Assembly: GCA_035635755.1 (NCBI GenBank)
Contig: DASQAK010000198.1
Coordinates: forward strand, 12,710 to 76,709
Length of the DNA stretch: 64,000 bases
Direction of reading: 5' to 3'
DNA from: Candidatus Methylomirabilota bacterium
GTDB taxonomy: Bacteria > Methylomirabilota > Methylomirabilia > Rokubacteriales > CSP1-6
Shown piece by piece: positions 960 through 19,873 of this stretch. The notes beneath the pieces are model-generated. The model saw only the letters and a program-made list of their open reading frames with translations. It did no database searches and had not been told where the DNA came from. Each line of letters opens with the position of its first letter. Within the stretch, counting starts at the first letter, position 1. Position numbers and translations under genes: made by a program.

Positions 960-968
960 GAGACGGCC

Positions 969-1520: not shown

Positions 1521-1521
1521 T

Positions 1522-1547
1522 CGCCGTCGGCTCTCCCCGCGACGGCG
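1522..1547. terminator. GC-rich hairpin between convergent genes (possible bidirectional terminator)
   Basis: CGCCGTCG (1522-1529) pairs with CGACGGCG (1540-1547) around a 10-nt loop. It lies between the stop at 1520 (+) and the stop at 1551 (-). There is no clear U-tract. Confidence 0.4.
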
Positions 1548-1550
1548 CGG

Positions 1551-1826
1551 TCAGCGTGGCCGCTCGGCCGGAGCGAGCGATCGGCCGCGCACCACCATCT
1601 CGTGCACTTCGTGGCCGCCCGCGGTGCACAGCCCCTCTTCCAGAGTCTCGCACTGGCCCTTGCGGACCACGGCGTAGAGGAACCGCGCCAGGTGCACGTG
1701 CTGCTCGGGCTTGACCTTGGCGGCAGTGGCGAGATGGGCGACGCAGTAGCCGAGCGGAAGACTCCCGGGCAGCTGGCGCTGGAGCACCGCCAGGACGCGT
1801 TCTTCCTGCGATCGCGACAGAACCAT
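1551..1826 (-). CDS. Hypothetical small protein (91 aa, three Cys)
   Basis: The minus-strand frame has strong G/C third-position bias and a non-repetitive protein-like composition. The overlapping + ORF 1602-1865 looks like its shadow. No family recognised. Confidence 0.55.
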   Translation of the reverse strand: MVLSRSQEERVLAVLQRQLPGSLPLGYCVAHLATAAKVKPEQHVHLARFLYAVVRKGQCETLEEGLCTAGGHEVHEMVVRGRSLAPAERPR

Positions 1827-1992
1827 CGTTCCCTCGCTACCTCCGCGCGAATGCTGGAGTCATGAGCAAGATCGCCCCCGTACTGAGAACAGCAATTTCA
1901 GGGCCACCGGGCGAGTCCGAGCACAATCAGTGGGTTAGACGACACCCTGGCCGGGCTTTGACGGAGAAGGGCAGAGGAGGTGACGTGGGGGC

Positions 1993-2457
1993 TCAATGAG
2001 CGCCCTGGTGGCTGCCCCGGCGCAACAAGACGATCAGATACCACACGATAGCGATATTGATCGCGATGACGGTGAGACGCGTCGGGGTCACGTGTCGCCA
2101 CAGCTCGTAGAGCTCGAGCGGAATGAACGAGCCCGTCACGATGACGGTGAAGTATTCCGCCCAGCGCTTCCGCAGGAGCAGGCCGACGCCTTCGGTCAGA
2201 AGCAGGGCGGCGTAGCCAAAGGTGCCCGCGCTGATCGCTCTCAGCTTGCGGTCATCGACAGACAGCAGCCGGGTCAGCAGGCGATCAGCAAGGCGGCCCT
2301 CCGGGTCGACATGGACCTGATCGAGCCAGCCCGCGACCACGTCGGCCACGTCCTTGTGCACCAAGTGCAGGGCCCCGACACCGACGACCACGAGCAGGAG
2401 GCCCTTGACCAGCTTGAAGCCTCCGATCAGCCAGAGGGCTTTATCGCTGGAAGGCAT
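1993..2457 (-). CDS. DUF2127-family small membrane protein
   Basis: 154 aa with about 4 hydrophobic helices. The N-terminal stretch LWLIGGFKLVKGLLLVVVGVGAL and the segment RKRWAEYFTVIVTGSFIPLELYEL are typical of DUF2127 proteins. Confidence 0.75.
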   Translation of the reverse strand: MPSSDKALWLIGGFKLVKGLLLVVVGVGALHLVHKDVADVVAGWLDQVHVDPEGRLADRLLTRLLSVDDRKLRAISAGTFGYAALLLTEGVGLLLRKRWAEYFTVIVTGSFIPLELYELWRHVTPTRLTVIAINIAIVWYLIVLLRRGSHQGAH

Positions 2458-2610
2458 GAGGGCTCAAGGGCCTCACCATGGATTGAGAGTAGCAGAAGGC
2501 TCCCGGGAATCCGGGCATCCCCTGACGGGAATGTCTCCGATTCCGTGTGATAAAGGGACCGGGCGAGGAACTCCCGGCCTGCGGCCGGATGGTGATATTC
2601 TGGCCAAGTC

Positions 2611-4443
2611 ATGTGCGGCATCGTCGGCTACGTCGGGGGCAACTTCGCCGAGATCGTGGTGGTGGACGGTCTCAAGCGCCTGGAGTACCGCGGCTATGAC
2701 TCCGCGGGTCTCGCCGTCCCCCTCGACGGCGGTCTCAAGCTCCGCCGCCGGGTCGGCAAGATCATCAATCTGGAGCGCGAGGTGCTCAAGGAGCCCCTGC
2801 AGGCGCACGTGGGCATCGGGCATACGCGCTGGGCCACGCATGGCGCCCCCACCGAGGCCAACACCCATCCGCATACGGACGCGGCCGGGCGCATCGCCGT
2901 CGTGCACAACGGCATCATCGAGAACTACCTGGAGCTACGCCACGAGCTCGAGACGGCCGGCGATCACTTCACCTCGGCCACCGACACCGAGGTCGTGCCC
3001 CATCTGGTCGCCGCGGGGATGGCTCGAGGGCTCGGCCTCGTGGAGGCGTTCCGTGCGGCCCTCCGGCGACTCGAGGGCAGCTTTGCCCTCGGTCTCGTCT
3101 CGGCCAGCCATCCGGGCGTGATTCTCGGCGCCCGCCGGTCGAGCCCGCTCGTCGTCGGCTATGGCGAGGGAGAGTTCCTCCTCGCCTCGGACGTCCTCGC
3201 GATCCAGTCCTATGCGGAGGCGGTGAGCTATCTCGAGGACGGCGACGTCTGCGTCATCGAGGCCTCGGGGGTGACCCTGAGCGATCTCGAGGGGCGCCCC
3301 GTGGAGCGGCCCCGCCACAAGGTGAATCGCGAGAGCCTGGCCGTGCACAAGGAAGGCTATCGCCACTTCATGGCCAAGGAGATCCACGAGCAGCCGCGCG
3401 TGCTCGCCCAGACCATCTCGGGCCGCATCGCCGACAGCGGCCGCGACGTGGTGCTCGACGGCGTCGGCCTCACGGGCGACCAGGTGCGCGAGCTCGAGCA
3501 CGTCCAGATCGTCGCCTGCGGGACGTCATGGCACGCCGGGCTCCTCGGCCGCTACCTCATCGAGGGCCTGGCGGGCATCCCCGTTCGCGTGGACTACGGA
3601 TCGGAATTCCGAGGGCGCGCCGCGCTGCTGCCGAAGCGCTCGCTCTTCCTCACCATCTCGCAGTCGGGAGAGACCGCCGACACGCTCACGGCGCTCCGGG
3701 GCATCCGGGGGCAGGGCGTGCGGACGCTGACCGTCTGCAACGTGCCGACCTCCTCCATGGTCCGGGAGTCCGACGACGCGCTGCTCACCCTGGTCGGCCC
3801 CGAGATCGGCGTCGCCTCGACCAAGGCCTTCACCGGACAGATCCTCGCCCTCGCCCTCCTGGCCGCCCACTGGGGCGTGGCGCGAGGGACGCTGAGCCCG
3901 GTGGACGCGGAGAGTTTCCTGGACCATCTCGTCCGGCTCCCAGGGCTGGTGGAGCACGCCTTCACCGTCGAGCCGGTCCTGCTCGAGGAAGCGCGCGGGC
4001 TGGCGGATGTGCGGAGCGTCCTCTATCTCGGGCGAGGCATCAACTACCCCGTGGCCCTGGAGGGCGCGCTCAAGCTCAAGGAGCTCTCGTATATCCATGC
4101 CGAGGGCTATCCGGCGGGCGAGATGAAGCACGGGCCCATCGCGCTCATCGACCCCCGCTTCCCCGTGATTGCCGTGGCGGGGAGCGGTCAGGACCAGGCC
4201 AAGCTCCTGTCGAACCTCTCCGAGGTGCGGGCGCGCGAGGCGCGGGTCACTCTCGTCACCACCGATCCCGAGACGCCGGCGAGCGCCGCGGACCGGCTCA
4301 TCGTGGTGCCGCGGACTTCGCCGTGGCTCGAGCCCATCCTCCTCGTGCTCCCGCTCCAGCTCTTGGCCTATCACACCGCGGTGCTCAAGGGCTCGGACGT
4401 GGATCAGCCGCGCAACCTCGCCAAGAGCGTGACCGTCGAATGA
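2611..4443 (+). CDS. glmS: Glutamine--fructose-6-phosphate aminotransferase (isomerizing)
   Basis: Begins MCGIVGY (N-terminal nucleophile Cys). 610 aa with two SIS domains (SQSGETADT, EGALKLKE). Ends ..PRNLAKSVTVE, the canonical GlmS C-terminus. Confidence 0.97.
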   Translation: MCGIVGYVGGNFAEIVVVDGLKRLEYRGYDSAGLAVPLDGGLKLRRRVGKIINLEREVLKEPLQAHVGIGHTRWATHGAPTEANTHPHTDAAGRIAVVHNGIIENYLELRHELETAGDHFTSATDTEVVPHLVAAGMARGLGLVEAFRAALRRLEGSFALGLVSASHPGVILGARRSSPLVVGYGEGEFLLASDVLAIQSYAEAVSYLEDGDVCVIEASGVTLSDLEGRPVERPRHKVNRESLAVHKEGYRHFMAKEIHEQPRVLAQTISGRIADSGRDVVLDGVGLTGDQVRELEHVQIVACGTSWHAGLLGRYLIEGLAGIPVRVDYGSEFRGRAALLPKRSLFLTISQSGETADTLTALRGIRGQGVRTLTVCNVPTSSMVRESDDALLTLVGPEIGVASTKAFTGQILALALLAAHWGVARGTLSPVDAESFLDHLVRLPGLVEHAFTVEPVLLEEARGLADVRSVLYLGRGINYPVALEGALKLKELSYIHAEGYPAGEMKHGPIALIDPRFPVIAVAGSGQDQAKLLSNLSEVRAREARVTLVTTDPETPASAADRLIVVPRTSPWLEPILLVLPLQLLAYHTAVLKGSDVDQPRNLAKSVTVE

Positions 4444-4901
4444 CGCGCCCCGCCGCCAAAGGCACCTTTTCCATGACGAGCGAGGCGGGCGAGCTCGTCC
4501 GCCTGCGGAAATGGCTGCGCGAGGAGCTCGAAGGGCACGGCGTGCCGCGGCCCGACCAGTCGAACCTGCTCCTGGCCGTCGGCGAGCTCTGCAACAACTC
4601 GATCCAGCACGCCTATGAGGGCCAGTCCGGCAAGCCCATCCGCGTCTCTGTGCGATCCAGCGACGAGGCGCTGACCATAGAGGTCGAGGACTTCGGCAAG
4701 CCCTTCGACGCCGAGCAGTACGAGGCGCCGAATTTGGAGGCCGTGCCCGATCACGGATACGGCCTCTTCCTCGTGAAGACCATTGCCGATAACCTCTCCG
4801 TTGACATTGCCCGAGAACGCGGCACCCGGTGGACCATCGTCAAGTACCGCCCCGGCCGCGGACCCGCGGTCGGTACGAAGGACGGGGTTTCCCGTTCGTG
4901 A
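4440..4901 (+). CDS. Anti-sigma-factor-type serine protein kinase (RsbW/SpoIIAB-like, HATPase_c_2)
   Basis: The ATG at 4440 overlaps the glmS stop (ATGA). N-box ELCNNSIQHA, G1 box VEDFGKPFD, G2 box HGYGLFLV. About 153 aa. The long upstream extension of ORF 3528-4901 is a glmS shadow. Confidence 0.85.
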   Translation: MTRPAAKGTFSMTSEAGELVRLRKWLREELEGHGVPRPDQSNLLLAVGELCNNSIQHAYEGQSGKPIRVSVRSSDEALTIEVEDFGKPFDAEQYEAPNLEAVPDHGYGLFLVKTIADNLSVDIARERGTRWTIVKYRPGRGPAVGTKDGVSRS

Positions 4902-4913
4902 GTGGAGGAGAGC

Positions 4914-5249
4914 ATGGACATTGATGTGACCCAGTCCAGCGAGGTGACCGTGGTCGCCCCGAAAGGCGACCTGGACATGGCGGCCGCGGACCAGGTGAAG
5001 CGGACGCTCACCGGACTCATCGGGCAGGGTCAATCGCGGCTCGTCATGGATCTGGGCGGCGTGGGCTATATCGACAGCTCGGGCATGGGAGTGCTCGTCG
5101 CGTCGATGAAGCAGGCCCGGGCCGCGGGCGGGGACGTCCGGCTCTGTGGCCTGCAGGAGGATGTCCGCGCCATCTTCGAGATGACCCGCCTGATCAAGGC
5201 CATGAGCGTCCACCCGACGCGTCAGGAGGCGCTCGCCTCTTGGCGCTAG
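4914..5249 (+). CDS. STAS-domain anti-sigma-factor antagonist (RsbV/SpoIIAA/HsbA-like)
   Basis: GGAGGAG sits upstream of the ATG at 4914; an alternative GTG lies at 4902, directly after the kinase stop. The GYIDSSGMGVLV motif carries the conserved phosphorylatable Ser (codon 5076-5078). About 111 aa. Confidence 0.88.
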   Translation: MDIDVTQSSEVTVVAPKGDLDMAAADQVKRTLTGLIGQGQSRLVMDLGGVGYIDSSGMGVLVASMKQARAAGGDVRLCGLQEDVRAIFEMTRLIKAMSVHPTRQEALASWR

Positions 5250-6103
5250 GCCGCCGGCTGCTCGCCATCACATTGGCGATCATGTCCGGCGGCACCGCAT
5301 GGGCCGGCCCCTTCCCGACCGGGCCGCTGGGCGGGGTCAAGACCTGGGCCGTCTACTACGGGGCGGCGCCCGAGACGGCTGCCGAGCTCGCCCGCTTCGA
5401 TCTCGTCGTCCTCGACCCGACCCGGCACCCGCCGCTCAACAACGTGAAGCGCCACGGCGCTTTGCTGCTCATGTATGTGAGTTTGGGTGAGGTCAATATC
5501 CACTCGCCGGCCTATCCGTCCATCGCCACGGAGCCGTGGGTGCTCGCCCCCAATCCGAACTGGCCCGAGGCTCGGCGACTCGATCCGCGTGCTCCGGGCT
5601 ACGAACGGTGGCTGCTCGAGCAGGTCGTGCCCGCGGCCCTCGCGGGGCCGGTCAATGGGCTCTTTCTCGACACGGCGGACACGCCAATGGAGCTCGAGCG
5701 GGCCGAGCCCGCACGCTTTGGCGGAGCGACCGAGGCGCTCGAGCGGGTGCTGGGGGCCCTCCACCGGGCGCATCCGCGCGCTCTGCTCGTCCTCAACGGC
5801 GGGCTGCCCCTCGTGGAGCGCTCCCGCCCCATGCTCGCCGGCGTGGCGGTCGAGTCGATCCTGACCGACTACGACTTCAAGGCCCAGCGGTACCGGGCGC
5901 GCGCGCCGGAGGCGGCGCGCGAGCGCGCGGCGGCCCTCCGGCGCGTCACCGCGCTCGGCCTCCCTGTCCTGGCCCTGGAGTACGCGCCACCGGATGACGC
6001 CGGCTGGACGCAGAGCCTGATCATCAAGACCCGCGAGGCGGGCCTGATTCCGTACATTTCAACAATCGGACTGGACAAAGTTTTCACTCAGACGCTACGC
6101 TAG
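5240..6103 (+). CDS. pelA: Secreted glycoside hydrolase resembling the N-terminal hydrolase domain of PelA (GH114/GH166-like alpha-1,4-galactosaminidase fold)
   Basis: A TTG start at 5240 overlaps the STAS stop and gives a Sec signal peptide MALGRRLLAITLAIMSGGTAWA/G. The composition is TIM-barrel-like. It sits directly 5' of the deacetylase ORF, in pelA position. Confidence 0.65.
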   Translation: MALGRRLLAITLAIMSGGTAWAGPFPTGPLGGVKTWAVYYGAAPETAAELARFDLVVLDPTRHPPLNNVKRHGALLLMYVSLGEVNIHSPAYPSIATEPWVLAPNPNWPEARRLDPRAPGYERWLLEQVVPAALAGPVNGLFLDTADTPMELERAEPARFGGATEALERVLGALHRAHPRALLVLNGGLPLVERSRPMLAGVAVESILTDYDFKAQRYRARAPEAARERAAALRRVTALGLPVLALEYAPPDDAGWTQSLIIKTREAGLIPYISTIGLDKVFTQTLR

Positions 6104-6109
6104 GGTCCG

Positions 6110-8347
6110 ATGCCCGAGGTGATGCTTTCCCGGCGCGCCCTCCTGAAGGGGTCACTGGCGATGGGAGCACTGACTCTGGACCCTCGGGCCGCTCTCGCCG
6201 CCAACGCCCTGCGTCGCCCCGAGGTCGCCCCGGGCGATGGCGAGCTCCCCCGCCGGGTCCTGGCCCTCTACAAGTCCTCCGAGCTCTACAACGCCGTGGA
6301 GGGCGCTCGCCCCAAGACGGCCTGGCTCAACGAGGTCCACGCCTGGGCCCAGATGCCGCTGAACTGGCTCGGGCTCATGGTCGACTACCACGACGTCGCG
6401 CGTGGCCTCCCCGACGAAGCGCAGATGGGGCGCTACCGCGGCGTGCTTACCTGGCACCAGACCGAGGAGATCGACGATCCGCTCGGCTACCTCCAGTGGC
6501 TCGCCGCGCAGGTCCGCGCGGGCCGCCGCCTCGTGATCCTGGGCAACCTCGGGGCCTATCGCGATCGCAAGACCCTCAAGACGCCGGGCCTGGACGAGAT
6601 CTCGCTCGCCCTCGCGCCCACCGGGCTCGAGTTCCGGGGACGCTGGACGGGCAACTCGCGGGTCATCGAGCTCCGCCAGAAGAATGCCGCCATGGTCGAG
6701 TTCGAGCGGGCCCTGCCGCCCGCCCTGCCGAACTACTATCAGGTCGTCTCGCGCCGGACGGACAGCCGCGTGCACCTCACGATCGGCCGCAAGGACGCTC
6801 CCGACTCGGACAGCCACCTCGTCGTGACGGGCCCGTGGGGCGGGTTCGCGGGGGAGGACTACGTCCGCTACCAGCAGGCCGTGCCCTACGCGGCGCCTGC
6901 CCTCGGAGGCAGCGCACGGGTGGACGCCTCGTACCAGCAGCTCGAGGCATTTCGCACCCGCTGGTGGATCAACCCCTTCGCCTTCTTCGAGGCGGCGCTC
7001 GGCCTCGAGGAATGGCCCCGGCCTGACGTGACCACGCTCAACGGGCGGCGCCTCTTCTACAGCCACATCGACGGGGACGGGATGCGCAACGTGTCCGAGG
7101 TGCGACCCCAGGCGCTGTCCGGCGAGGTCATCCACGACGAGATCCTGTCGAAGGTGCCCCTGCCCATCTCCGTGTCGGTGGTCGTGGCCGAGGTCGATCC
7201 CGAGCTCCTGGGCTCGGCGCGGACCCAGGGCTTGGCGCGCGCCATGTTCGCCCTGCCCAATGTCGAGGCGGCCAGCCATTCCTTCACGCACCCGCTCGAC
7301 TGGGAGAAGCGCACGCGGAGCTTCGATCTGCCGCGTCTGCCGTACTCCGTGGAGACCGAGATCGCGGGCTCCGTCCGCTACATCGAGGAGCGGCTTCTGC
7401 CCCGCGGCAAGCGTGTGAGGCTCTTCCAATGGTCGGGGTCGACGCGGGTGAGTGAGGAGGCCCTCGCCCTCGTCGAGCGGCTCGGGCTGCCGAACATCAA
7501 CGGCGGCGACTCCATGTTCGATCGCGAGTGGCCGTCGTACACGAAGGTCGCCCCCCTCGGGCGCGCGGTCGGGCGGTACTGGCAAAGCTATACCTCGGCG
7601 GCCAACGAGAACCTCTACACGAACCTCTGGGCGGGGCCCTTCTACGGCTTTCGCCATGTCGTGGAGACGTTCAAGAGCACGGAGAGTCCGCGCCGGGTCA
7701 GCCCCGTCAACGTCTACTATCACTTCTACTCGGGAGAGCGCGTGGCTTCGCTGGCTGCGTTGCGTGTCGTCTACGACTGGGCGAGACGACAGCCGGTGGC
7801 CCCGGTCTTCACCAGCGAGTACCTGGCCATGGTCGAGGGTTTCCGCACGGCCCGCGTCGCGCGCGCGGGGGCAGGGTACCGGGTGTGGGACCATGGCGCG
7901 CTCCGGACTATTCGGTTCGACGCGGGTCGGTTCGACGCGGGTCGGTTCGACGCTGGGCGGTCCGACGCGGGCCACGCAGCGGTGGACATGACGCGCTCGC
8001 GCGGCGTGCTGGGGTTCACCCGCCACCAGGGCTCGCTCTATGTCCATCTCGAGGGACCCGGCGAGGCCTTCATCGTGCCCTCGGCGACGCCAGGCCCCGG
8101 CCCCTACCTGGCGGGGGCCAGCCATCGCGTCTCCCGCTGGCAGCGCCAGGGAAGAGACTGGAGCTTCAAGCTCGAAGGCATAGGCGCCAAGTCTGCCGAG
8201 ATCGGGGGACTGCGGGCGGGGGAGGAGACGCAAGTCGAGATCAGCGGGAGCGAGGGCACGCGCCACGTGCGGGCCCGCGTCTCAACTGAGGGCATCCTCG
8301 CCCTCACGCTCGGCGACGGCCCCGAGGTCCAGGTGCGCGTCCTGTGA
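6110..8347 (+). CDS. pelA: Tat-exported polysaccharide deacetylase (CE4) multidomain protein, corresponding to the C-terminal two-thirds of PelA
   Basis: Twin-arginine signal MLSRRALLKGSLAMGALTL. CE4 motifs SHIDGDG and HSFTHP (H-S-x-x-H). 745 aa. Position in the locus fits pelA. Confidence 0.75.
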   Translation: MPEVMLSRRALLKGSLAMGALTLDPRAALAANALRRPEVAPGDGELPRRVLALYKSSELYNAVEGARPKTAWLNEVHAWAQMPLNWLGLMVDYHDVARGLPDEAQMGRYRGVLTWHQTEEIDDPLGYLQWLAAQVRAGRRLVILGNLGAYRDRKTLKTPGLDEISLALAPTGLEFRGRWTGNSRVIELRQKNAAMVEFERALPPALPNYYQVVSRRTDSRVHLTIGRKDAPDSDSHLVVTGPWGGFAGEDYVRYQQAVPYAAPALGGSARVDASYQQLEAFRTRWWINPFAFFEAALGLEEWPRPDVTTLNGRRLFYSHIDGDGMRNVSEVRPQALSGEVIHDEILSKVPLPISVSVVVAEVDPELLGSARTQGLARAMFALPNVEAASHSFTHPLDWEKRTRSFDLPRLPYSVETEIAGSVRYIEERLLPRGKRVRLFQWSGSTRVSEEALALVERLGLPNINGGDSMFDREWPSYTKVAPLGRAVGRYWQSYTSAANENLYTNLWAGPFYGFRHVVETFKSTESPRRVSPVNVYYHFYSGERVASLAALRVVYDWARRQPVAPVFTSEYLAMVEGFRTARVARAGAGYRVWDHGALRTIRFDAGRFDAGRFDAGRSDAGHAAVDMTRSRGVLGFTRHQGSLYVHLEGPGEAFIVPSATPGPGPYLAGASHRVSRWQRQGRDWSFKLEGIGAKSAEIGGLRAGEETQVEISGSEGTRHVRARVSTEGILALTLGDGPEVQVRVL
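7913..7972 (+). repeat. In-frame 15-bp tandem repeat x4 (CGGTTCGACGCGGGT) encoding (RFDAG)n inside the PelA-like deacetylase
   Basis: Direct reading: cggttcgacgcgggt / cggttcgacgcgggt / cggttcgacgctggg / cggtccgacgcgggc. Confidence 0.9.
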
Positions 8348-8360
8348 ACCTCAACCGCCC

Positions 8361-10604
8361 ATGAATCTCAACCGATGGAAGGTCTGGTCGTGCGTGGCCG
8401 GAGTCCTGCTCCTGCTCGCCCTCGTCACGCCGTCACGAACCGATCTCGGGTGGGCCTACCTCTCGCGGCGCGAATATGCCCTCGCGCGCGAGACCTTCGT
8501 GGAGCAGCTGCGACGCGACCCGTCCGATCCCCAGACCTGGCTCGGACTGGCCGCCGTCTACGATGCGCTCGGAGATCCCGACCGGCAGATCGCGGCGCTC
8601 GAGACGGTGGCTCGCCGCTTCCCGGGCCATCGCGACGCACGCCGGCTCCTCGCCGACGTCTACGAGTGGAACCGCGACCCCGAGAGTGCCCTGCGCGTCC
8701 TCGCGCAGATGCCGCCCACGGGCGAGGCCGAGGACCAGCCGAGGCTCATGCGCGTCCTCGGTCTCTCGCAATGGCTGGGTCAGTACGACCGCATGGTCAT
8801 CTCCCTCCACCAGATCCTGAGGCTGGGGCCGACGGTGCGCGACACTCTCGAGGATCTCGTGGTTTCGGCGCGCGTGCTCGGCCGGCAGAGCGAGGTCTTG
8901 CCGGCCCTTGTCGCCTACGCGGAGCGTCGCCCCTCGGATGCCGAGGGCCAGCGCCTCCTCGCCGAGGTCTACGATTCGCTGGGCGACGAGAAGCAGGCGC
9001 TCGACCGCTGGCGTATCGTGGCCCGCCTGCGGCCCAAGGACGCCGCGGCGCGCGCGCGTCTCCTCCCCGAGCCGGGCGGCGCCGCGCCCGTCGAGGAGCT
9101 GGCCCTTCTCGAGCGTGCCCGCGAGAGCGATCCGCGGGACGAAGCGGCGCGGCGCCGGCTCGTCGAGATCTACCACGGGGCCGGTGACATCCCGCGCGCC
9201 ATCGAGATCCAGCGCGAGCTGGTGGCCCTCCGGCCGCGGGACGCCGAGGCCCTGATCGCCCTCGGGGGACTCCTCGTCGCCCAGGACCGCGGGCGCGAGG
9301 CGATCGGCGTCTACGAGCGCGCCCTCGAGATCGAGCCGGGGCGGGCCAGCCTCGAGATGACCCTGGCCCAGCTCTACGAGTGGACCAATCAGCCCGGCCG
9401 AGCGGCTGCGCTTCTCGAGCGGGCCTCGGCGGCCCGCCCGGGTGACCGGGCCCTCGCCGAGCGTGTGATCGCGGCCGCGAGCGCGGCAGGGGATACGGAC
9501 AAGGCGGTGGCGGTTCTCGACCGGCTCGCTCGGCTGTATCCCGACGATCATCGCTACGCTCGCCGGGCCGCGGACGCGCTCGTGGCCGCCAACCGCGTGC
9601 CCGAGGCGATCCCACGCCAGCGCGCCCTCCTCGAGCGCGAGCCGGGCGCCCCCGAGCCGGCGCTGAGGCTCGCCCAGCTCTACGAATGGACGGGCAAGGA
9701 GGCCGAAGCCATCGGCGTGTACGAGGGGCTGGATCGCGCGGGCAGTCTTCCGGAGGCCTCCGCCCTCAGGCTCGCCGAGCTCTATCGCTTCCAGAACCGC
9801 CCCGCCGATTTCGTGCGGCTGGCCGAGCGGCTCCTGTCGCGACGGCCGGACGACGCGTCGCTGCGACGGGAAGCCATAGAGACAGCGACGGGCCTCGGCC
9901 GCGCGGACCTCGCCCTCAGGCTCCTCCGTCCCCTGGTCGATCGGCAGCCGGCCGACGAGACGCTGGCTCTTCGCTATCTCGGCCTCGCGGCGGAGGCGCG
10001 GCGCCTGGACGACGGGCTCGGCGTGTGGCGGCGATTCCTGGCCGCGACCCCCGGGGCCAAGATCGACGCCCGGCTCAAGGCCGGGAAGCTTCTCGCCGAC
10101 CTTGGGCGGCCGGGGGATGCCATCGTTGAATATGAAGCGGCGGTCGCTTTGGGAGGCGACAAGCCTGAGGCCGCCGCGAACGTGACCGCCCGCCTCGCCC
10201 TCGCCGCGCTCTACGAAGCCACCGGGGCCCCGGCGAAATCGCTGGCCCAGCTCGAGGCGCTCCAGCGGTTGCGCCCGCGTGATCCCGCCATCCTGCGCGA
10301 GGTAGGGCGGCGCAGTCTCGGCCTGTCCCGACAAGAGTCCGCCTTGCGCGCGTATCAGGCGCTGCTCGACCAGGAACCCAACGACCTCGAGGCGCTCAAG
10401 CGGGTCGGCCAGCTCCTGGCCTGGAGCGGCGAGCGACCGCGCGCGAGGCAGGCGCTCGAGCGGTTCAATCGTCTCAAGGGGGGCGACTACGAAGTGCACT
10501 ACCTGCTGGGCGAGATCTACACGGCCGAGCACGACGAGGGACGTGCCCGGTCCGAGTACGAGAAGGCCTTGCGGCTTCTCCCCCCACGGTCAGCCACGAG
10601 ATAG
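8361..10604 (+). CDS. pelB: TPR-repeat scaffold protein with N-terminal membrane anchor, corresponding to the N-terminal TPR region of PelB
   Basis: N-terminal hydrophobic segment VWSCVAGVLLLLALV, then about 700 aa of repeated A/L/R/E-rich 34-residue TPR-like units (..AEVYDSLGD.., ..AQLYEWTG..). It lies in pelB position. Confidence 0.8.
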   Translation: MNLNRWKVWSCVAGVLLLLALVTPSRTDLGWAYLSRREYALARETFVEQLRRDPSDPQTWLGLAAVYDALGDPDRQIAALETVARRFPGHRDARRLLADVYEWNRDPESALRVLAQMPPTGEAEDQPRLMRVLGLSQWLGQYDRMVISLHQILRLGPTVRDTLEDLVVSARVLGRQSEVLPALVAYAERRPSDAEGQRLLAEVYDSLGDEKQALDRWRIVARLRPKDAAARARLLPEPGGAAPVEELALLERARESDPRDEAARRRLVEIYHGAGDIPRAIEIQRELVALRPRDAEALIALGGLLVAQDRGREAIGVYERALEIEPGRASLEMTLAQLYEWTNQPGRAAALLERASAARPGDRALAERVIAAASAAGDTDKAVAVLDRLARLYPDDHRYARRAADALVAANRVPEAIPRQRALLEREPGAPEPALRLAQLYEWTGKEAEAIGVYEGLDRAGSLPEASALRLAELYRFQNRPADFVRLAERLLSRRPDDASLRREAIETATGLGRADLALRLLRPLVDRQPADETLALRYLGLAAEARRLDDGLGVWRRFLAATPGAKIDARLKAGKLLADLGRPGDAIVEYEAAVALGGDKPEAAANVTARLALAALYEATGAPAKSLAQLEALQRLRPRDPAILREVGRRSLGLSRQESALRAYQALLDQEPNDLEALKRVGQLLAWSGERPRARQALERFNRLKGGDYEVHYLLGEIYTAEHDEGRARSEYEKALRLLPPRSATR

Positions 10605-10614
10605 GCCGACCACC

Positions 10615-12189: not shown

Positions 12190-12206
12190 CGTCCTGGACG
12201 AGGAGG

Positions 12207-12779
12207 ATGGAGACGGCGCAGCACAGAGCGCGCGCGGCGCTGGCGCTGCTCGCCACGCTCCTCCTGGTCTCCTGCGCGGGCCCCAGCCAGGAATGGACCC
12301 GCCCCGGCGCGTCGCGGATAAGCAAGCTCGCCGTGCTCCCCTTCGAGAACCAGACCAGCGCCGTCCGGCCCGGCGCCTCCGTGTCCGAGCTCCTGGTCTC
12401 CGAGCTTCTGGCCTCGGGGCCGGTGGCGGTCATGGATCCGAGCGAGGTCGCCGATCTCCTCCGCCGCGAGAACCTCGATCCCGCCGACGCGGGGCGCCTG
12501 CCCTCGGCGCAGCGCATGGGCCGTCTCCTGCAGGTGTCTCACGTCCTCCAGGGCGCCGTCACCGAGTACCGTTACCGTCCCGGCCTTTCCGAGACGCCCG
12601 TGGTCGGCGTGACCGCGCGGGTCATCGACGTCGCCACCGGGGACCTGGTGTGGACCGCGAGCTACGCGCGCTCCGGATCGTCGTGGCGGCAGGAGGGACT
12701 ATCGAGCGTGGCCCAGTCCATTGCCCGGGACATGGCCACGCATCTGTCCGGCGCGCTGGGCGACGCCCGGGCGCGGTAA
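12207..12779 (+). CDS. pelC: Outer-membrane lipoprotein PelC-like
   Basis: Lipobox LLLVSC at the end of the signal peptide. The LAVLPFENQT motif is typical of PelC/TolB-N-like lipoproteins. 190 aa, in pelC position. Confidence 0.8.
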   Translation: METAQHRARAALALLATLLLVSCAGPSQEWTRPGASRISKLAVLPFENQTSAVRPGASVSELLVSELLASGPVAVMDPSEVADLLRRENLDPADAGRLPSAQRMGRLLQVSHVLQGAVTEYRYRPGLSETPVVGVTARVIDVATGDLVWTASYARSGSSWRQEGLSSVAQSIARDMATHLSGALGDARAR

Positions 12780-12786
12780 GCGCCGG

Positions 12787-14157
12787 GTGAGCGGCGCCTC
12801 CCACCGCGTCGACGCCTATCTCCTCGAGCTCGGCGCCGGGATCATCCTGCTCGCCATCGTCAATGTCCTGTTCCTGCCGCACGACATCGGCTTTCTGGGC
12901 TGGCAGCCCAATCCCGCCCTCGCCCTCGTCGCGGTCATCGCGGCGCGCCACGGGCTTCGCGAGGGGATCATGGCCGCCCTCGTGATGGCGGGTCTCGAGC
13001 TCGCCTGCCGGTTCGGCCGAGCCGAAGACCTGTCGTGGAGCATGATGCGGAGCCTGCAGACGTATGTCACCCCCCTCCTGCTCCTGAGCACGGGTTTCCT
13101 CCTGGGTGCCATCCGGGAGGAGCGGCGGCGAGAAACGGAGGGGCTCGGGCAGCGCGTCCGCGATCTCGAGGACGAGCTCGCCGACCAGGCCGTGCGCTTC
13201 ATGGCCGCCTCGGAGGCAAAGCACGAGCTCGAGCGGCGCGTGGCCGACGAGGGCGCCTCCCTCTCCAACCTGTATGCCGCCGCCCAGGCCCTCGAGACCC
13301 TCGACGTCGATCGCCTCTATCCGGCCATCCCCCAGACGGCGCGGCGCTTTCTCCAGGCCGATGCGTGCCAGCTCTATCTCCTCGACGGCGACGTCCTGCG
13401 GCTGCGGGCCGCCGAGGGCGCGCCGCCGCCGCTCACGGAGCTCAATCCGGGAGAAGGGCTCGCGGGGCTCGCCATCCGCCAGGGCAAGGCGCAGAGCCTG
13501 CGCGACCTCATGACGATCTCCACGGCCGAGGAGCTGCAGCGCGCGCCCTTCGTCATGGCCGCCCCGCTCACCGGACGCGAAGGCGCCCTCCTGGGGTGCC
13601 TCACGGTCACCCGCCTGCCCTTCCTGCGTCTCAATCCCGTCGCCCTCGACCGACTCGGGCTCGTGGCGAACTGGGCGGCCCTCGCGGTCGACAACGCCCG
13701 GACGCACGAGAGAACGCGGGCCCGCACCATCCAGGACGATCTCATCCGCGCCTACACGTACGCCTACTACCAGCACCGGCTCGAGGAGGAGGAGGCGCGC
13801 GCCGCGCGCTATGATCGGCCCCTCGCCGTCCTGATCTTCCGCATCCGGCAGCTCGAGCTGATCGCCTCGGCGCGGCGTGCGGAGCTGGGCCGCGTGCTCT
13901 CGCTCGTGTTCAACCACTCGCTGCGCGACGTGGACATCGTCTGCCGCTACGCGACCGACGATGCCTTCGCCGTCATCCTGCCCGAGACGGACGCCGAGGG
14001 CGCGGCGGTGGTGGCCGCGCGTGTCGAGCACGAGATCGCCGCCTTCCAGTTCGCGCCCTACGCCGACGAGGACCGCGACCTCGAGTTCACCATCCGCGTG
14101 CTCCCCGTGCGGGAGCCGGGGCAGGGCCCCGCGAGAGGACGGGAGCCGCGGGGATGA
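12787..14157 (+). CDS. pelD: PelD-like inner-membrane c-di-GMP receptor (TM helices + GAF + degenerate GGDEF)
   Basis: GTG start at 12787. About 4 N-terminal TM helices and a central GAF-like region. The C-terminal GGDEF fold has the active site degenerated to ATDDAF (13951-13968) but keeps the I-site RDVD (13924-13935) with canonical 5-residue spacing. About 456 aa. Confidence 0.85.
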   Translation: MSGASHRVDAYLLELGAGIILLAIVNVLFLPHDIGFLGWQPNPALALVAVIAARHGLREGIMAALVMAGLELACRFGRAEDLSWSMMRSLQTYVTPLLLLSTGFLLGAIREERRRETEGLGQRVRDLEDELADQAVRFMAASEAKHELERRVADEGASLSNLYAAAQALETLDVDRLYPAIPQTARRFLQADACQLYLLDGDVLRLRAAEGAPPPLTELNPGEGLAGLAIRQGKAQSLRDLMTISTAEELQRAPFVMAAPLTGREGALLGCLTVTRLPFLRLNPVALDRLGLVANWAALAVDNARTHERTRARTIQDDLIRAYTYAYYQHRLEEEEARAARYDRPLAVLIFRIRQLELIASARRAELGRVLSLVFNHSLRDVDIVCRYATDDAFAVILPETDAEGAAVVAARVEHEIAAFQFAPYADEDRDLEFTIRVLPVREPGQGPARGREPRG

Positions 14158-15149
14158 GAGCCCTCCTGCTCACCCTGCTCGCGGCGGCGATGGAGGCGGG
14201 GGCCGGCCTCGCCCTCTGGGCCGCCGGCATGCCAGCACTTCCCGTGGCGATCGTCCTCCATGGCCTCGCCAGCCTGCTTGCCGCCGGGGGTCTCGCGCGG
14301 CGCACACGGCCCGACGAGCGGCTCTACGTTTTTGGCACTGTGCTCGCCCTGCCCGGTCTGGGCCTGCTCGGCGTCGCCGGGGTTCGGCTCTGGGCCGTCC
14401 TCGTGCCGCCCTCGGGAATGTACGAGGACATACACACGGAGATGGGCGATCTGCCTGCGCCCGCGCTGCCGCCCGAGTCCGTGGACCGGGTCTCCGAGTG
14501 GGTACAGCAGCAGGTCTCCGTGCAACCCCTGGCCGATCTCGTCCGGGCGGGCGACCCTCGCACCCAGCGCTGGGCCATCGATCTCCTCGGCCGCCGCGGC
14601 GATCGCGCGGCCGTTGACTTGCTCCGCGAAGCGCTGGGCGCCACCGACCGCGACGTGCAGATGGCGGCCTCTTCAGCCCTCCAGCGCGTCGAGGAGCGAC
14701 TCACCCGGGAGATCTCTCGCGGCCAGGAGCGTCTGAGGGAAGAGCCCGACTCGGCCATCGCCTGGCACGCTTTTGGCGAGACCTGTCGGTCCTACTGGGG
14801 CTCGCACCTCCTCGATCCCACCATGGGCCAGCACTGGCTGGGCGAGGCCGAAGCCGCCTACCGACGGGCGCGGGCGCGGCGACCGGGCTGGCTACCGCCT
14901 ACCGTGGGATTGGTGCAAGCACTGCTGGGGCTGGGCAAGCTGCACGAGGCCGAGGCCCTGGCGCGCGAGGCGGAGGAGCTGTCGCCGTCGGGCACCCTCG
15001 ATCTGTTGCTCGCCGAGGTGCTCTTCCGCGAGCAGCGATGGTCCGAGCTTCGACGGCTGGCCCGCGGCGCCGTCGCTGCCGGACGCCAGGATGAGCGGCT
15101 CGCCTGGTGGGCGGGCGCCGAGCCATCGCGAGAGGCCCCGCATGGCTGA
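14154..15149 (+). CDS. pelE: PelE-like inner-membrane TPR protein
   Basis: ATGA overlap with pelD. Hydrophobic N-terminal helices are followed by HEAT/TPR-like repeats. 331 aa, in pelE position. Confidence 0.8.
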   Translation: MRALLLTLLAAAMEAGAGLALWAAGMPALPVAIVLHGLASLLAAGGLARRTRPDERLYVFGTVLALPGLGLLGVAGVRLWAVLVPPSGMYEDIHTEMGDLPAPALPPESVDRVSEWVQQQVSVQPLADLVRAGDPRTQRWAIDLLGRRGDRAAVDLLREALGATDRDVQMAASSALQRVEERLTREISRGQERLREEPDSAIAWHAFGETCRSYWGSHLLDPTMGQHWLGEAEAAYRRARARRPGWLPPTVGLVQALLGLGKLHEAEALAREAEELSPSGTLDLLLAEVLFREQRWSELRRLARGAVAAGRQDERLAWWAGAEPSREAPHG

Positions 15150-16653
15150 GAGGGCGGACGTCTGCCTGATTCTCGAAGGCACGTATCCGTACGTCACGGG
15201 CGGCGTGTCGGCCTGGATCCATCAGCTGCTCCGTGCCCTGCCGGAGATCCGCTTCGCCCTCTTCCACATCGGCTCCACCGCGGGCACCACGCTCACCGCC
15301 CAGTACCAGCTGCCGTCGAACGTCGTCAGCCTGACCAATCTCGGCCTGCATGGCGGCGACGAGCCCGACGTGCATGGCCAGGCCCTCCAGCCCGACGACT
15401 GGGAGGCGGTCCGGACTTTCCACGATCAGCTCCAGGAGGAGCGGACGGCCGGATTCGCCGGACTCATGGAGCGGATCGCGCCCGCCCCCGGGGGCGGGCC
15501 CTCGGGCCACGACTATCTCTACGGCAAGCCCTCCTGGGATGTCGTCCGGCAGATCTATGAAGCGCGCGCGTCCGACGTCTCGTTCGTCGACTACTACTGG
15601 ACCTGGCGCTTCACGCACCTGCCGATGTTCCGGCTCATGCACGCCACGCTTCCAGAGGCCGCCGTGTATCACACGGTCTCCACGGGCTGGGCGGGACTCG
15701 CCGCCACCCTGGCTCGCGTGCGGACCGGTCGCCCCATGCTCCTGACCGAGCACGGCATCTATGCGCGCGAGCGCCGCAGCGAGATCGACCAGGCGGAATG
15801 GATCTATGTCCAGCGGCAGGGGCCGATGAGCCTGTCCGGCGGGCCCGGCTTCTTCAAGGAGCTCTGGACGCGGCTCTTCGTGCGCCTCTCGCAGCTCACC
15901 TATGAGCACGCCGACCTCATCGTCACCATATTCGAGGGCAACCGCCAGGCGCAGATCCGCGACGGCGCCGATCCCGCCAAGACCCTCGTCATCCCCAACG
16001 GGGTGGACATCGAGCCCCTGGCCGCGCTCGTGCCGGTGCCCGCCGCGCCGGGCGAGTTCCGCGTGGGGTTCGTGGGGCGCATCGTTCCGATCAAGGACGT
16101 CAAGACCTTCCTCCGCGCCATCAAGATCCTCGTCGAGCATCTGCCGGGAGCGCGCGCCGTGCTGGCCGGGCCAACCGACGAGGATCCGGACTATGTCACC
16201 GAGTGCCGGACCCTCGCCGCCACTCTCGGGATCCAGGATCGCGTCGAGATCACGGGCGCGGTGGACGTGCGGGAGATCTACGCGCGGCTCGACGCCGTGG
16301 CCCTCACCAGCGTGTCGGAGGGCCTGCCCCTCGTCGTGCTGGAGGCGGGTGCGGCCGGCCTTCCCATGGTCGCCACGGACGTGGGCGCGTGCCGAGAGCT
16401 GCTGCAGGGACGCGACCGCGCCGACCGGGCGCGGGGGCCGAGCGGCCTCGTCACGGGCGTGGCCGACCCCGGCGCGACGTCCGAGGCCCTGCTCACGCTC
16501 GCGCGCGATCCCGGCCTCCGCCACGAGATGGGCCGCGTCGCTCGCGAGCGGATCCGTGCCCACTACCAGGAGCGGGACCTCGTCGCGAGCTATCGCGACA
16601 TCTATAGCCGCCTGATGGCGGCCGCTCCCGATCCCGCGGGTCTAGGCCAATGA
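15142..16653 (+). CDS. pelF: PelF-like GT4 glycosyltransferase
   Basis: The ATG at 15142 overlaps the pelE stop. The N-terminal stretch LILEGTYPYVTGGVSAWIHQL is typical of PelF. The GT4 C-terminal region SVSEGLPLVVLEAGAAGLPMVATDVG is present. About 503 aa. Confidence 0.9.
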   Translation: MAERADVCLILEGTYPYVTGGVSAWIHQLLRALPEIRFALFHIGSTAGTTLTAQYQLPSNVVSLTNLGLHGGDEPDVHGQALQPDDWEAVRTFHDQLQEERTAGFAGLMERIAPAPGGGPSGHDYLYGKPSWDVVRQIYEARASDVSFVDYYWTWRFTHLPMFRLMHATLPEAAVYHTVSTGWAGLAATLARVRTGRPMLLTEHGIYARERRSEIDQAEWIYVQRQGPMSLSGGPGFFKELWTRLFVRLSQLTYEHADLIVTIFEGNRQAQIRDGADPAKTLVIPNGVDIEPLAALVPVPAAPGEFRVGFVGRIVPIKDVKTFLRAIKILVEHLPGARAVLAGPTDEDPDYVTECRTLAATLGIQDRVEITGAVDVREIYARLDAVALTSVSEGLPLVVLEAGAAGLPMVATDVGACRELLQGRDRADRARGPSGLVTGVADPGATSEALLTLARDPGLRHEMGRVARERIRAHYQERDLVASYRDIYSRLMAAAPDPAGLGQ

Positions 16654-16654
16654 T

Positions 16655-16755
16655 AAGGGGCCATCTGCTTCGTTGCCGCCCTCGGCCGCCCGCTCAACGT
16701 ACAGAAAGTACGCCTCGCGTGCGGCCGTCGGGCGACGCCTCGCATCTGGCCCCTT
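16655..16755. repeat. About 101-bp palindromic intergenic element (family X copy 1): termini AAGGGGCCA...TGGCCCCTT
   Basis: It fills most of the only large gap in the pel cluster. It shares GCCCTCGGCYGCMCGCTCAACGTAC and TACGCCTCG...CGCCTCGCATCTGGSCCYTT with the element at 48585-48797. Confidence 0.8.
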
Positions 16756-16792
16756 CTCATTTCCCTAGACAGGCATGAAAGGGCGCTGAACC

Positions 16793-18193
16793 GTGGCGGG
16801 TATAGGATTTCGGCTGAAGCGGCTCATCGCCGAGGAGAGCTATGGCGGCTGGCTGCGGGCGCACCTCTACGGCGCCGTGCTGTCCTCGGGCCCCTGGCTC
16901 CTCAGCATCTTCACGCTCGCCTCCCTGAGCTTGCTCTCGCGCGGCATCGTCGACGATCCCGCGCGCGATCTCTTTCGCACCATCGTGGCGTGGACCTACT
17001 CCTTTTCCCTGGTGACCACGGGCGCGCTGCAGATGGTGGTCACGCGCCAGCTTGCCGACGCCCTGTATCTGGGACGGCTCGGGGTGGTGGTGACGGCCTT
17101 TCGCTGGACGATGGGCTGGACGGCCCTCGCCCATCTGGGGCTGGGCGCGATCTTTTACGGTCTGGCCCCCGGCCTCCCGCCCGGGGCCCGTGTCTTCGGC
17201 GTCATGCTGCTCGTGGTGGTGTCCTCGACGTGGATGGCCATGATCTTCGTGGGCGCCGCGCAGGACTACGCGAGCGTGGTCGTGGCCTTCTTCATGGGCA
17301 ACGCTGTGTCGGCGGCGGCGGCGCTCGGGGGCGGCTATCTCTGGGGCGTGGAGGGATACCTGGCGGGCTTCCTGCTCGGCCAGACCGCCATCGTCTTCGT
17401 GCTCGCGGCGCGGATCGAGCGCGAGTTTCCCGCCCGCGGCGACGCCGAGCGCCTTCGCTTCGGGCGTGCCCTGCGGAAGTACCGGGCCCTCGCGGTGGCG
17501 GGCACCTGCTACAACGCGGCCATCGTCGCGGACCGCGTGGTCTTCTGGTGCTCCGCCGAGGGCCGTCACGTGGCGAGCTGGTTCTGGGCTTCGCCGTACG
17601 ACACCGCGGTGTTCCTGGCCTATCTCTCCGTGGTACCGTCGCTCACCATCTTCCTCGTGCGCGTCGAGACGGACTTCTACGACCGCTTCCGTGAGTACTA
17701 CGGGGCCGTGAGCAAGCATGGGACGCTGGCCCAGGTGCTGCACGCCAAGGAGGGGATGGCCGAGTGCTTGCGCGAGAGCCTGCGCCGGGTCTTCCTCGCG
17801 CAGGGTCCGCTCACCCTCGCCCTCGTCGCGCTCGCCCCCTGGATCGCCGCGGGACTGGGCCTCGATCGATTGCAGGCGGCCATGCTGCGGCCACTCCTCG
17901 TGGGCGCGGCCCTGCATATCGTGGCGCTCTTCGGCACCATCATCCTGCTGTACTTCGATCGGCGCCGAGACGCCGCCGAGGTGTCCGTCATCTTCTTCGT
18001 GGCCAACCTGGCCCTGACTGCCGCCACGCTCTGGGCCGGACCGCGCTTCTATGGACAGGGATATCCGATGGCGGCGCTCCTCGCCGCGGCCTGGGCCTAC
18101 CACCGTCTCGAGCAGACCCTGCGCGACCTCGAATACCTGACCTTCGCCTCTCAGCCCATGGACCCCGAAGACCAGCCGGCCGCCGCCTCGTGA
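16793..18193 (+). CDS. pelG: PelG-like polytopic membrane protein (PST/MOP-type exporter)
   Basis: GTG start. The N-terminus MAGIGFRLKRLI.. is typical of PelG. About 12 hydrophobic segments, 466 aa. Confidence 0.88.
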   Translation: MAGIGFRLKRLIAEESYGGWLRAHLYGAVLSSGPWLLSIFTLASLSLLSRGIVDDPARDLFRTIVAWTYSFSLVTTGALQMVVTRQLADALYLGRLGVVVTAFRWTMGWTALAHLGLGAIFYGLAPGLPPGARVFGVMLLVVVSSTWMAMIFVGAAQDYASVVVAFFMGNAVSAAAALGGGYLWGVEGYLAGFLLGQTAIVFVLAARIEREFPARGDAERLRFGRALRKYRALAVAGTCYNAAIVADRVVFWCSAEGRHVASWFWASPYDTAVFLAYLSVVPSLTIFLVRVETDFYDRFREYYGAVSKHGTLAQVLHAKEGMAECLRESLRRVFLAQGPLTLALVALAPWIAAGLGLDRLQAAMLRPLLVGAALHIVALFGTIILLYFDRRRDAAEVSVIFFVANLALTAATLWAGPRFYGQGYPMAALLAAAWAYHRLEQTLRDLEYLTFASQPMDPEDQPAAAS

Positions 18194-19869: not shown

Positions 19870-19873
19870 GACG

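Follow-up and report, generated by a model that had tools for sequence, protein, structure and literature searches.

A Partner-Switching Kinase/STAS Pair Recurs beside pel Exopolysaccharide Loci of Rokubacteria and Persists in Relatives without pel

Introduction

What does a partner-switching module do directly ahead of a set of exopolysaccharide genes? Pel is a widespread biofilm polysaccharide, and to our knowledge its sole established post-translational control is the binding of cyclic di-GMP (c-di-GMP) to PelD. In a stretch of 64,000 nucleotides (nt) from an uncultured soil bacterium, a Candidatus Methylomirabilota member of the Rokubacteriales (contig DASQAK010000198.1, positions 12,710 to 76,709; the whole stretch is called the window below), the genes pelABCDEFG follow glmS, a gene for an RsbW/SpoIIAB-type serine kinase, and a gene for a protein that consists of a STAS domain only. 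A first-pass annotation proposed that the kinase and the STAS protein are a dedicated protein-level switch for the Pel machine or for its precursor supply, a wiring it took to be undescribed for pel loci. Here, we weigh this proposal against related loci with and without pel, in Rokubacteria and in other phyla.

Recurrence of the Kinase/STAS Pair at pel Loci

The loci compared came from the neighbourhoods of kinase homologs and from a genome survey of 80 loci, for which a PelA alignment served as the query (at least 577 PelA relatives); profile searches of the survey loci covered STAS, kinase, PP2C, and Pel proteins. The kinase-seeded search reached Rokubacteria-like relatives only, and the cross-phylum view is that of the PelA-based survey. 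Nine distinct Rokubacteria pel loci were obtained, namely the window, L012, L013, L014, L016, L017, L018, L019, and L020. We found that a STAS gene lies directly upstream of pelA in all nine and that the kinase is present in eight, fused to the STAS protein in L013, L018, and L020 and reading through into it in L017. The STAS stop overlaps the pelA start by 10 nt in the window, L012, L013, L017, and probably L016. The kinase and STAS proteins of these pel-bearing lineages share as little as 52–55% identity, and a locus identical to that of the window is found across many soil metagenomes and metagenome-assembled genomes (MAGs).

In L016, a rearrangement put unrelated genes and an AT-rich stretch right before the STAS gene; the kinase, glmS, and the phosphatase gene described below are gone from the 6.5 kb upstream, and the STAS gene is still with pel. 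An apparent frameshifted STAS pseudogene in this locus was rejected, being a 100-N scaffold gap with a duplicated flank. The deep-branching Rokubacteria locus L019 carries two STAS genes before pelA (7500–7829 and 8800–9129, within 7043–9989), separated by a 318-amino-acid (aa) open reading frame (ORF) that belongs to no Pfam family. Two loci syntenic with the Rokubacteria backbone are recorded under other taxa, L096 (DATJPC010000030.1) as 'Candidatus Bathyarchaeia archaeon' and L020 (DATLFG010000064.1) as 'Candidatus Limnocylindria bacterium'; both labels are probably binning or labelling errors.

Outside Rokubacteria, an adjacent STAS gene occurs in 2 of the 73 other PelA loci, which represent many phyla. 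One of them, L093 (Desulfovibrionaceae), has a lone STAS gene divergent from pelC. In the other, the Desulfobacterales MAG L051, genes for a SpoIIE-HATPase_c_2 protein and a STAS protein stand directly upstream of, and co-oriented with, a string of four genes: one with weak similarity to pelD, an unassigned ORF where pelE would be expected, pelF, and pelG. A metagenome search with the L051 PelD-like protein yielded four relatives (72–87% identity) with the same arrangement as far as their contigs reach; the upstream protein of L102 has 1128 aa and the architecture FHA-GAF-PAS-PAS-SpoIIE-HATPase_c_2. The Desulfobacterales STAS protein is 28% identical to that of the window, the module precedes pelD and not pelA, and this variant has a fused PP2C-kinase with FHA-GAF-PAS input, no receiver, and no glmS. 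Its distant relation, different build, and different position make the Desulfobacterales module an independent case of a switch in a pel locus. The association between partner switch and Pel is real and recurrent; the refutation that the earlier proposal had named, a lack of recurrence next to pel, did not come about, given 9/9 Rokubacteria and five Desulfobacterales loci.

The survey also revealed stand-alone genes for receivers of about 125 aa that closely precede pelA, in a raw count of at least nine loci: L025 8171–8960 (two in tandem), L032 8619–9017, L034 2925–3296, L035 2751–3128, L037 8477–8890, L040 4291–4740, L042 1439–1816, L044 9570–9950, and L082 9398–9931. These loci come from Omnitrophota, Deltaproteobacteria, Bdellovibrio, Flavobacteriaceae, and unclassified MAGs, and they hint at a phosphorelay input to Pel in many uncultured lineages. 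Matches of the PP2C profile to ORFs of about 125 aa were rejected: they cover the receiver part only, and Pfam assigns the proteins to stand-alone response regulators.

Components of the Partner-Switching Pathway

Across 14 Rokubacteria orthologs, the N, G1, and G2 boxes of the kinase (ELCNNSIQHAY, EDFGKPFD, and GYGLFLV) are kept and the STAS motif YIDSSGMG is invariant. The closest solved structure to the kinase is RsbW (6m36), and those closest to the STAS protein are SpoIIAA, which is the best PDB match, TM1442, and also RsbV. Ser55 of the STAS protein (codon 5076–5078) is the DSSG serine and aligns with Ser58 of SpoIIAA. By these motifs and structural matches, the two proteins are a bona fide RsbW/RsbV-type pair. 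The STAS gene likely starts at ATG 4914, behind the Shine-Dalgarno sequence GGAGGAG (4905–4911), and public gene calls also give 111 aa; a start at GTG 4902 is less likely on both counts.

In longer contigs, the first ORF of the window is a full REC-SpoIIE protein of 387 aa, the start of which overlaps by 4 nt the end of an upstream gene for a 1537-aa hybrid histidine kinase (6xGAF-PAS-HisKA-HATPase-REC). Judged by sequence, this REC-PP2C protein is likely the STAS phosphatase. Its gene lies at most 10 kb upstream in five of the nine pel-bearing and five of the six pel-less lineages; it is absent from L011, and L098 shows only a cut, unannotated ORF. With the hybrid kinase, the REC-PP2C protein, the STAS protein, and the serine kinase all encoded at the locus, a complete partner-switching pathway is present. 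Scans of genes at the locus revealed no Hpt domain. The first-pass annotation had recognized the kinase/STAS pair correctly and had overlooked the upstream REC-PP2C and hybrid kinase genes that complete the pathway. A further giant sensor is encoded at 31241–37423 (+) of the window: a hybrid histidine kinase of 2060 aa that has eight GAF domains and is built like the one encoded ahead of REC-PP2C.

Between the phosphatase and the kinase, the cassette has another conserved member, an AhpD-like gene. What had been called as two ORFs, of 80 aa and 94 aa, is a single gene split by the in-frame TGA at 1209–1211, which occupies the second Cys position of a CxxC motif (INGCPF-TGA-IDIN). The TGA, the surrounding protein sequence, and a downstream hairpin (GCATCC-CGGG-GGATGC) are kept in eight loci, distant ones included. 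The stability of the hairpin is not above that of shuffled sequence (z −0.9), and a selenocysteine reading of the TGA draws on conservation, with no support from hairpin energy. On that ground, the AhpD-like gene is a probable unannotated selenoprotein gene.

Relatives without pel

Six kinase homologs sampled at 71–78% identity (L011 and L095–L099) sit in loci with a shared backbone and with neither pel nor glmS at the locus. The backbone runs from genes for a sugar-phosphatase-like hydrolase, a methyltransferase, a GAF hybrid kinase, the REC-PP2C protein, a binding protein (in some loci), the AhpD-like protein, the kinase, and the STAS protein to those for an ABC permease, an MFS protein, an ABC ATPase, a rhodanese, and an enoyl-CoA hydratase. 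After the STAS stop, the pel-less loci still contain GCCGCCGG..., the first pelA codons, and the permease starts 22–88 nt downstream of that stop. This remnant of the pelA start implies that the pel operon was deleted, and the loss has the appearance of a clean deletion, about 13 kb long. In a neighbour-joining tree of kinase plus STAS with a Desulfobacterales root, the window joins the pel-less lineages (bootstrap 100%), and pel is present in every deeper branch. The pel-less lineages are monophyletic with a support of only 50%, which leaves one or two losses of pel.

In the pel-less set, the ratio of non-synonymous to synonymous substitution rates (dN/dS) of the kinase and STAS genes is 0.07–0.19, with 0.30 instead for the pair L097–L098. 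Since the switch outlived pel in these relatives, its outputs probably include Pel but are not confined to it; to call the switch 'dedicated' was too strong, given six relatives that deleted pel with the kinase and STAS genes intact.

In L096 (7937–9271 and 10919–14870), the kinase and STAS genes lie inside an ABC-transporter string made up of a binding protein, the AhpD-like gene, kinase, STAS, a fused permease, MFS, and ATPase. In the window (18190–22155), the binding-protein gene is missing from its position in this string, and pel stands between STAS and the permease.

The pel Genes and PelD

Families were assigned by Pfam scans of the window ORFs and, for one ORF without a Pfam family, by a PDB match. 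PelA and PelB are each spread over two ORFs, namely GH114 and deacetylase for PelA, and TPR and TPR plus the C-terminal part for PelB. The 745-aa PelA ORF is the one without a Pfam family and matches the solved PelA of Pseudomonas aeruginosa (9cgy), and the GH114 protein, read from TTG 5240, begins with the signal peptide MALGRRLLAITLAIMSGGTAWA. The candidates for PelB (ORFs with TPR), PelC (a protein with a lipobox), and PelE (a membrane protein with HEAT/TPR) follow the expected order; the porin and PelC are assigned by position and weak matches. The reported complete pelABCDEFG is upheld by the family assignments for PelA (GH114 and 9cgy), PelD, PelF, and PelG, and by these candidates for the remainder, with the amendment that PelA and PelB are each two ORFs. 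The same split layout is seen in L012 and L013, Rokubacteria loci with called genes; L014 has no GH114 ORF.

In PelD, the RxxD motif reads RDVD and lines up with the I-site of a diguanylate cyclase; the A-site, with the sequence ATDDAF, is degenerate. The c-di-GMP gating of PelD is probably intact, as far as these motifs tell. With the I-site kept, the partner switch would be an added input beside c-di-GMP.

Direct and Indirect Control of Pel

We favour direct action of the STAS protein on the PelD-G complex and give it a probability of roughly 40%. The kinase would phosphorylate the STAS protein at Ser55, and the hybrid kinase, acting via the receiver domain of the PP2C protein, would set the rate of dephosphorylation. 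The phosphorylation state would choose the binding partner of the STAS protein, one form of which would act at the protein level on the cytoplasmic Pel synthase complex (PelD-G). The prime candidate partner would be PelD, the GGDEF-like domain of which resembles HsbD, the partner of HsbA in P. aeruginosa. In this way, an environmental phospho-switch input would be placed atop c-di-GMP gating, and glmS would be an optional co-transcribed gene for precursor supply. Direct action is favoured because two unrelated modules are found inside pel loci, one of them right before pelD, because no sigma factor gene is near, and because All4160 of Anabaena and HsbA-HsbD offer precedents. Further points in its favour are the completeness of the module, the adjacency in all nine Rokubacteria pel loci, the STAS gene left with pel in L016, and SypA/SypE as another precedent. 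Beyond the gene content, motifs, recurrent synteny, direction of gene loss, and purifying selection that the loci display, we infer the protein contacts, the co-transcription, and the sign of regulation. If true, the control of Pel in some bacteria would include serine phosphorylation as an additional input, with large GAF/PAS sensors feeding it.

A more specific form of this idea, which we regard as unlikely, is that the STAS protein in one phospho-state would bind the GGDEF-like domain of PelD (or PelE/PelF) as a c-di-GMP-independent second gate that licenses polymerisation, and that this gate arose at least twice, in Rokubacteria and in Desulfobacterales. If so, the receiver genes upstream of pelA would suggest a widespread phosphorelay input to Pel outside the model proteobacteria.

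Four observations weigh against direct action. First, the kinase and STAS genes are kept under purifying selection without an adjacent pel. Second, PelD keeps its I-site by motif alignment, which leaves no regulatory gap to fill. Third, the two STAS genes beside the other PelA loci, in about 1.3 Mb, roughly equal the expectation from STAS gene density, and only their placement is unusual. Fourth, tight gene spacing by itself is not above background; the recurrence of adjacency is.

Two of these points would also suit indirect control, in which a conventional anti-sigma/anti-anti-sigma module or an HsbA-like relay has its partner elsewhere (an anti-sigma factor or a diguanylate cyclase) and reaches Pel via transcription, c-di-GMP, or a shared promoter. 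Where pel is gone and the pair is still under purifying selection, another partner must exist; since the I-site of PelD is kept, the c-di-GMP route would suffice. In addition, the stand-alone HATPase_c_2 protein of 153 aa is nearest to RsbW, the STAS protein is nearest to SpoIIAA, and the HsbR/HsbA targets RpoS, FlgM, and HsbD are none of them encoded beside an exopolysaccharide locus. In contrast, neither the 64 kb nor the related loci examined yielded a sigma-70-family gene. As the first-pass annotation had stated, the window lacks one: Pfam scans of essentially all confident ORFs gave no sigma-70-family match, and a six-frame phmmer search with SigB, SigF, RpoE, and FliA gave no sigma factor, with a best E of 0.77. 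The annotated neighbourhoods of the relatives and the surroundings of the Desulfobacterales module contain no sigma gene either. The two unrelated module architectures, both inside pel loci, also speak against an indirect route, as does the conserved upstream element, which resembles a housekeeping extended −10 and not a SigB/F-type promoter. Indirect control is doubtful when taken singly and nearly as likely as direct action, and it is needed anyway for the pel-less lineages.

This upstream element follows the motif TGCTAT(A/T/G)(C/G)T, which is kept with 10 nt and an ATG behind it upstream of the kinase in 10 related loci, and TGATATTCT in the window is a candidate leaderless-type promoter of the whole string. 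A generic promoter and terminator scan of 900–18400 gave nothing above shuffle expectation, left TGATATTCT uncalled, and found no terminator from glmS to pelG, a result that is uninformative at 70% G+C. An Rfam scan of window positions 1–20000 found no glmS ribozyme and no c-di-GMP riboswitch; a flg-Rhizobiales match was dismissed at 28 bits against a gathering score of 55. Tentatively, the region may be an old Rokubacterial operon, with inferred co-transcription, that comprises a promoter, glmS, kinase, STAS, and pelABCDEFG downstream of its own input pathway.

The earlier idea of a protein-level switch for Pel or its precursors is partly supported: recurrence with pel and the lack of a nearby sigma gene speak for it, the claimed dedication to Pel goes too far, and glmS is dispensable.

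Gene Packing and the Case for No Functional Link

It might also be that switch and Pel are not functionally linked, and that pel and glmS are cargo beside a general signalling cassette in an inherited gene order. The window lends itself to such a view: it carries nearly all genes of its 64 kb on the plus strand, and about half of the junctions are at most 17 nt, even between rhodanese, enoyl-CoA hydratase, and HAD genes. In the related locus L096, 10 of the 20 junctions are at most 17 nt, including those between plainly unrelated enzymes.

The individual junctions had been described largely correctly. The gene glmS ends in GTC GAA TGA, giving an ATGA overlap with the kinase ATG at 4440, and the STAS stop TAG (5247–5249) overlaps the GH114 TTG start at 5240 by 10 nt. 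Beyond the GH114 ORF, the junctions measure +6, +13, +10, +17, +7, −4, and −8 nt, followed by 139 nt between pelF and pelG; overlaps or gaps of at most 17 nt up to pelG are confirmed, with this one exception. The kinase stop (4899–4901) is followed by the STAS gene at a distance that is most likely 12 nt and not 0. The 'repeat-filled' pelF-pelG spacer did not hold up, having only weak short repeats (one 17-nt pair of 82% identity). Nor is the translational 'welding' special: the pelG stop overlaps the GTG start of the ABC permease (GTGA, 18190–18193), 4-nt gaps and overlaps go on past pelG through the MFS and ABC ATPase genes, and such packing is the general style of this genome.

A cargo relation would also agree with the independent loss of pel and of glmS from the switch, with the place of the pair in an ABC-transporter string in pel-less relatives, and with the rarity of STAS beside pel outside two clades. 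However, the association recurs in Desulfobacterales with another architecture and position, the STAS gene stays with pel after the rearrangement in L016, and the STAS-pelA overlap is kept though the switch proteins diverged to roughly 65% identity. We therefore regard the absence of any link as fairly improbable. Were there no link, the case would show that operon-like packing in the dense genomes of uncultured phyla can mislead functional inference.

The Place of glmS

Among the pel-bearing Rokubacteria lineages, glmS is present in two of nine, the window and L017. The glmS-kinase ATGA junction of L017 is identical to that of the window, flanks included. L017 is sister to L012 (98% bootstrap), which has no glmS, and is not the closest relative of the window. 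In the lineages without glmS, the −10-like motif is followed after exactly 10 nt by an ATG and a few codons similar to those at the start of glmS; a short stretch like the glmS 3' end is kept as well in L012 and L013. In other lineages, the slot ahead of the kinase is taken by an unrelated gene, for a methyltransferase, a PAS protein, or an enoyl-CoA hydratase. BLAST of the presumed glmS remnants gave weak matches that are not significant (E 0.05–0.75), and the argument for remnants is based on position and on reading of the sequences, not on BLAST. It is suggestive that glmS was the first gene of the ancestral operon and was lost at least three times, leaving its promoter to drive the kinase. 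The gene glmS is dispensable, with presumed deletion remnants in some of the lineages that lack it. In L013, at about 9878–10000, the promoter-like motif and the presumed glmS remnant are tandemly duplicated upstream of the fused kinase-STAS gene, with the copies 60 nt apart.

A switch over precursor supply, with the STAS protein or the kinase regulating GlmS activity, is highly improbable: the shared ATGA overlap in L017 and the remnants of both glmS ends in L012 and L013, which suggest an ancestral fusion, speak for it, and against it stand the absence of glmS from seven of nine pel-bearing lineages, all six pel-less lineages, and the Desulfobacterales loci, the unrelated genes in the slot, and the shortness and weak BLAST scores of the remnants.

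Gene Layout of the Window

The window has a G+C content of about 70%. The gene order is REC-SpoIIE, AhpD-like, two small minus-strand genes, glmS, kinase, STAS, pelA (two ORFs), pelB (two ORFs), pelCDEFG, and ABC permease (Table 1). Farther downstream, a 121-aa ORF at 24944–25309 (+) matches the C-terminal domain of thiolase only (E 7e-47); the gene is possibly truncated, or else a longer ORF begins farther upstream than called.

Table 1. Features of the switch and pel region, in window coordinates.
Feature	Position	Strand	Evidence or remark
REC-PP2C (SpoIIE-type) phosphatase (likely), C-terminal 318 of 387 aa	3–959	+	Pfam SpoIIE 1.5e-51 and Response_reg; cut by window start
AhpD-like (CMD family) gene, in-frame TGA 1209–1211	969–1520	+	candidate selenoprotein
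Extended −10-like element TGATATTCT	2592–2600	+	10 nt before glmS ATG; motif conserved in relatives
glmS, glutamine-fructose-6-phosphate aminotransferase, 610 aa	2611–4443	+	Pfam GATase_6/7 and 2 SIS
RsbW/SpoIIAB-type serine kinase, 153 aa	4440–4901	+	Pfam HATPase_c_2 (PF13581) E 2.5e-26
STAS-domain-only protein, 111 aa	4914–5249	+	Pfam STAS (PF01740) E 1.3e-23
PelA hydrolase part, 287 aa, signal peptide	5240–6103	+	Pfam GH114 E 5.4e-9
PelA deacetylase/beta-jelly-roll part, 745 aa, twin-arginine translocation (TAT)-like signal	6110–8347	+	PDB 9cgy PelA residues 418–851, E 3.7e-71
PelB TPR part, 747 aa	8361–10604	+	many TPR families
PelB C-terminal part, 524 aa, signal peptide	10615–12189	+	TPR matches in N-terminal half; start set at ATG 10615; outer-membrane barrel presumed
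PelC-like lipoprotein, 190 aa, lipobox LLVSC	12207–12779	+	weak CsgG/LpoB-like Pfam matches and conserved position
PelD: transmembrane segment, GAF, degenerate GGDEF	12787–14157	+	Pfam GAF and GGDEF
PelE-like protein, 331 aa	14154–15149	+	HEAT/TPR
PelF glycosyltransferase, DUF3492 and GT4	15142–16653	+	Pfam 2.9e-81
PelG	16793–18193	+	Pfam PelG 2.5e-121
ABC permease, GTG start	18190–19869	+	right edge of pel indel

Comparison with Known Systems

Two systematic papers on pel loci make no mention of STAS, anti-sigma factors, or glmS, and a literature search brought up no link between Rokubacteria and Pel, the word Rokubacteria being absent from its ten top-ranked papers. The wiring is, to that extent, undescribed for pel loci as the first-pass annotation supposed; the concept has precedents in other exopolysaccharide loci. 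Sigma-independent partner switches over polysaccharide are known from SypA/SypE inside the syp locus of Vibrio fischeri and from HmpU/V/W in Nostoc.

The window shares three protein families and the serine motif with the Bacillus subtilis systems RsbU/RsbV/RsbW-SigB and SpoIIE/SpoIIAA/SpoIIAB-SigF. Unlike these, it has no cognate sigma gene in the operon or in the 64 kb, and its phosphatase has receiver input. As with the galE/pelX-type epimerases that flank pel loci, glmS is a nucleotide-sugar supply gene beside pel, but it acts three steps earlier in the pathway and is often lost.

The HptB-HsbR-HsbA system of P. aeruginosa, an organism that also makes Pel, has the logic proposed here, of hybrid sensor kinases acting through a receiver-PP2C protein on partner exchange by a STAS protein; HsbA in its phosphorylated form binds HsbD, a GGDEF protein, and biofilm formation is raised. 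However, REC, PP2C, and kinase are in one HsbR chain and HptB is required there, whereas no Hpt was seen here. Furthermore, the hsb genes adjoin flagellar genes and not pel, and their link to Pel is indirect (c-di-GMP and Gac/Rsm).

In Anabaena, HenR (REC-SpoIIE), the STAS-glycosyltransferase All4160, and its kinase led the authors to argue for direct control of a biosynthetic enzyme. In HenR/All4160/Alr3423 of Anabaena and HmpU/V/W of Nostoc, a REC-SpoIIE protein, a STAS domain, and a serine kinase, types that are also encoded here, govern a polysaccharide layer. Those cyanobacterial systems have scattered genes and a STAS domain joined to a glycosyltransferase in one protein, whereas here a separate STAS gene is co-oriented with pelA and overlaps it.

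SypA/SypE resembles the Rokubacteria locus in having a STAS-only gene inside an exopolysaccharide locus (SypA Ser56 is phosphorylatable), an RsbW-like kinase and a PP2C under receiver control, and no sigma factor in the locus. The two differ in build, since kinase, receiver, and phosphatase are one protein in SypE, whereas the kinase here is encoded by a gene separate from that of REC-PP2C, unlike the bifunctional SypE architecture. They differ also in setting: syp is Wzx/Wzy-like, pel is synthase-dependent, and the switch described here persists without polysaccharide genes. If direct action on Pel is true, the proteins of the window would provide a defined set for asking what STAS proteins in polysaccharide loci, such as SypA, bind.

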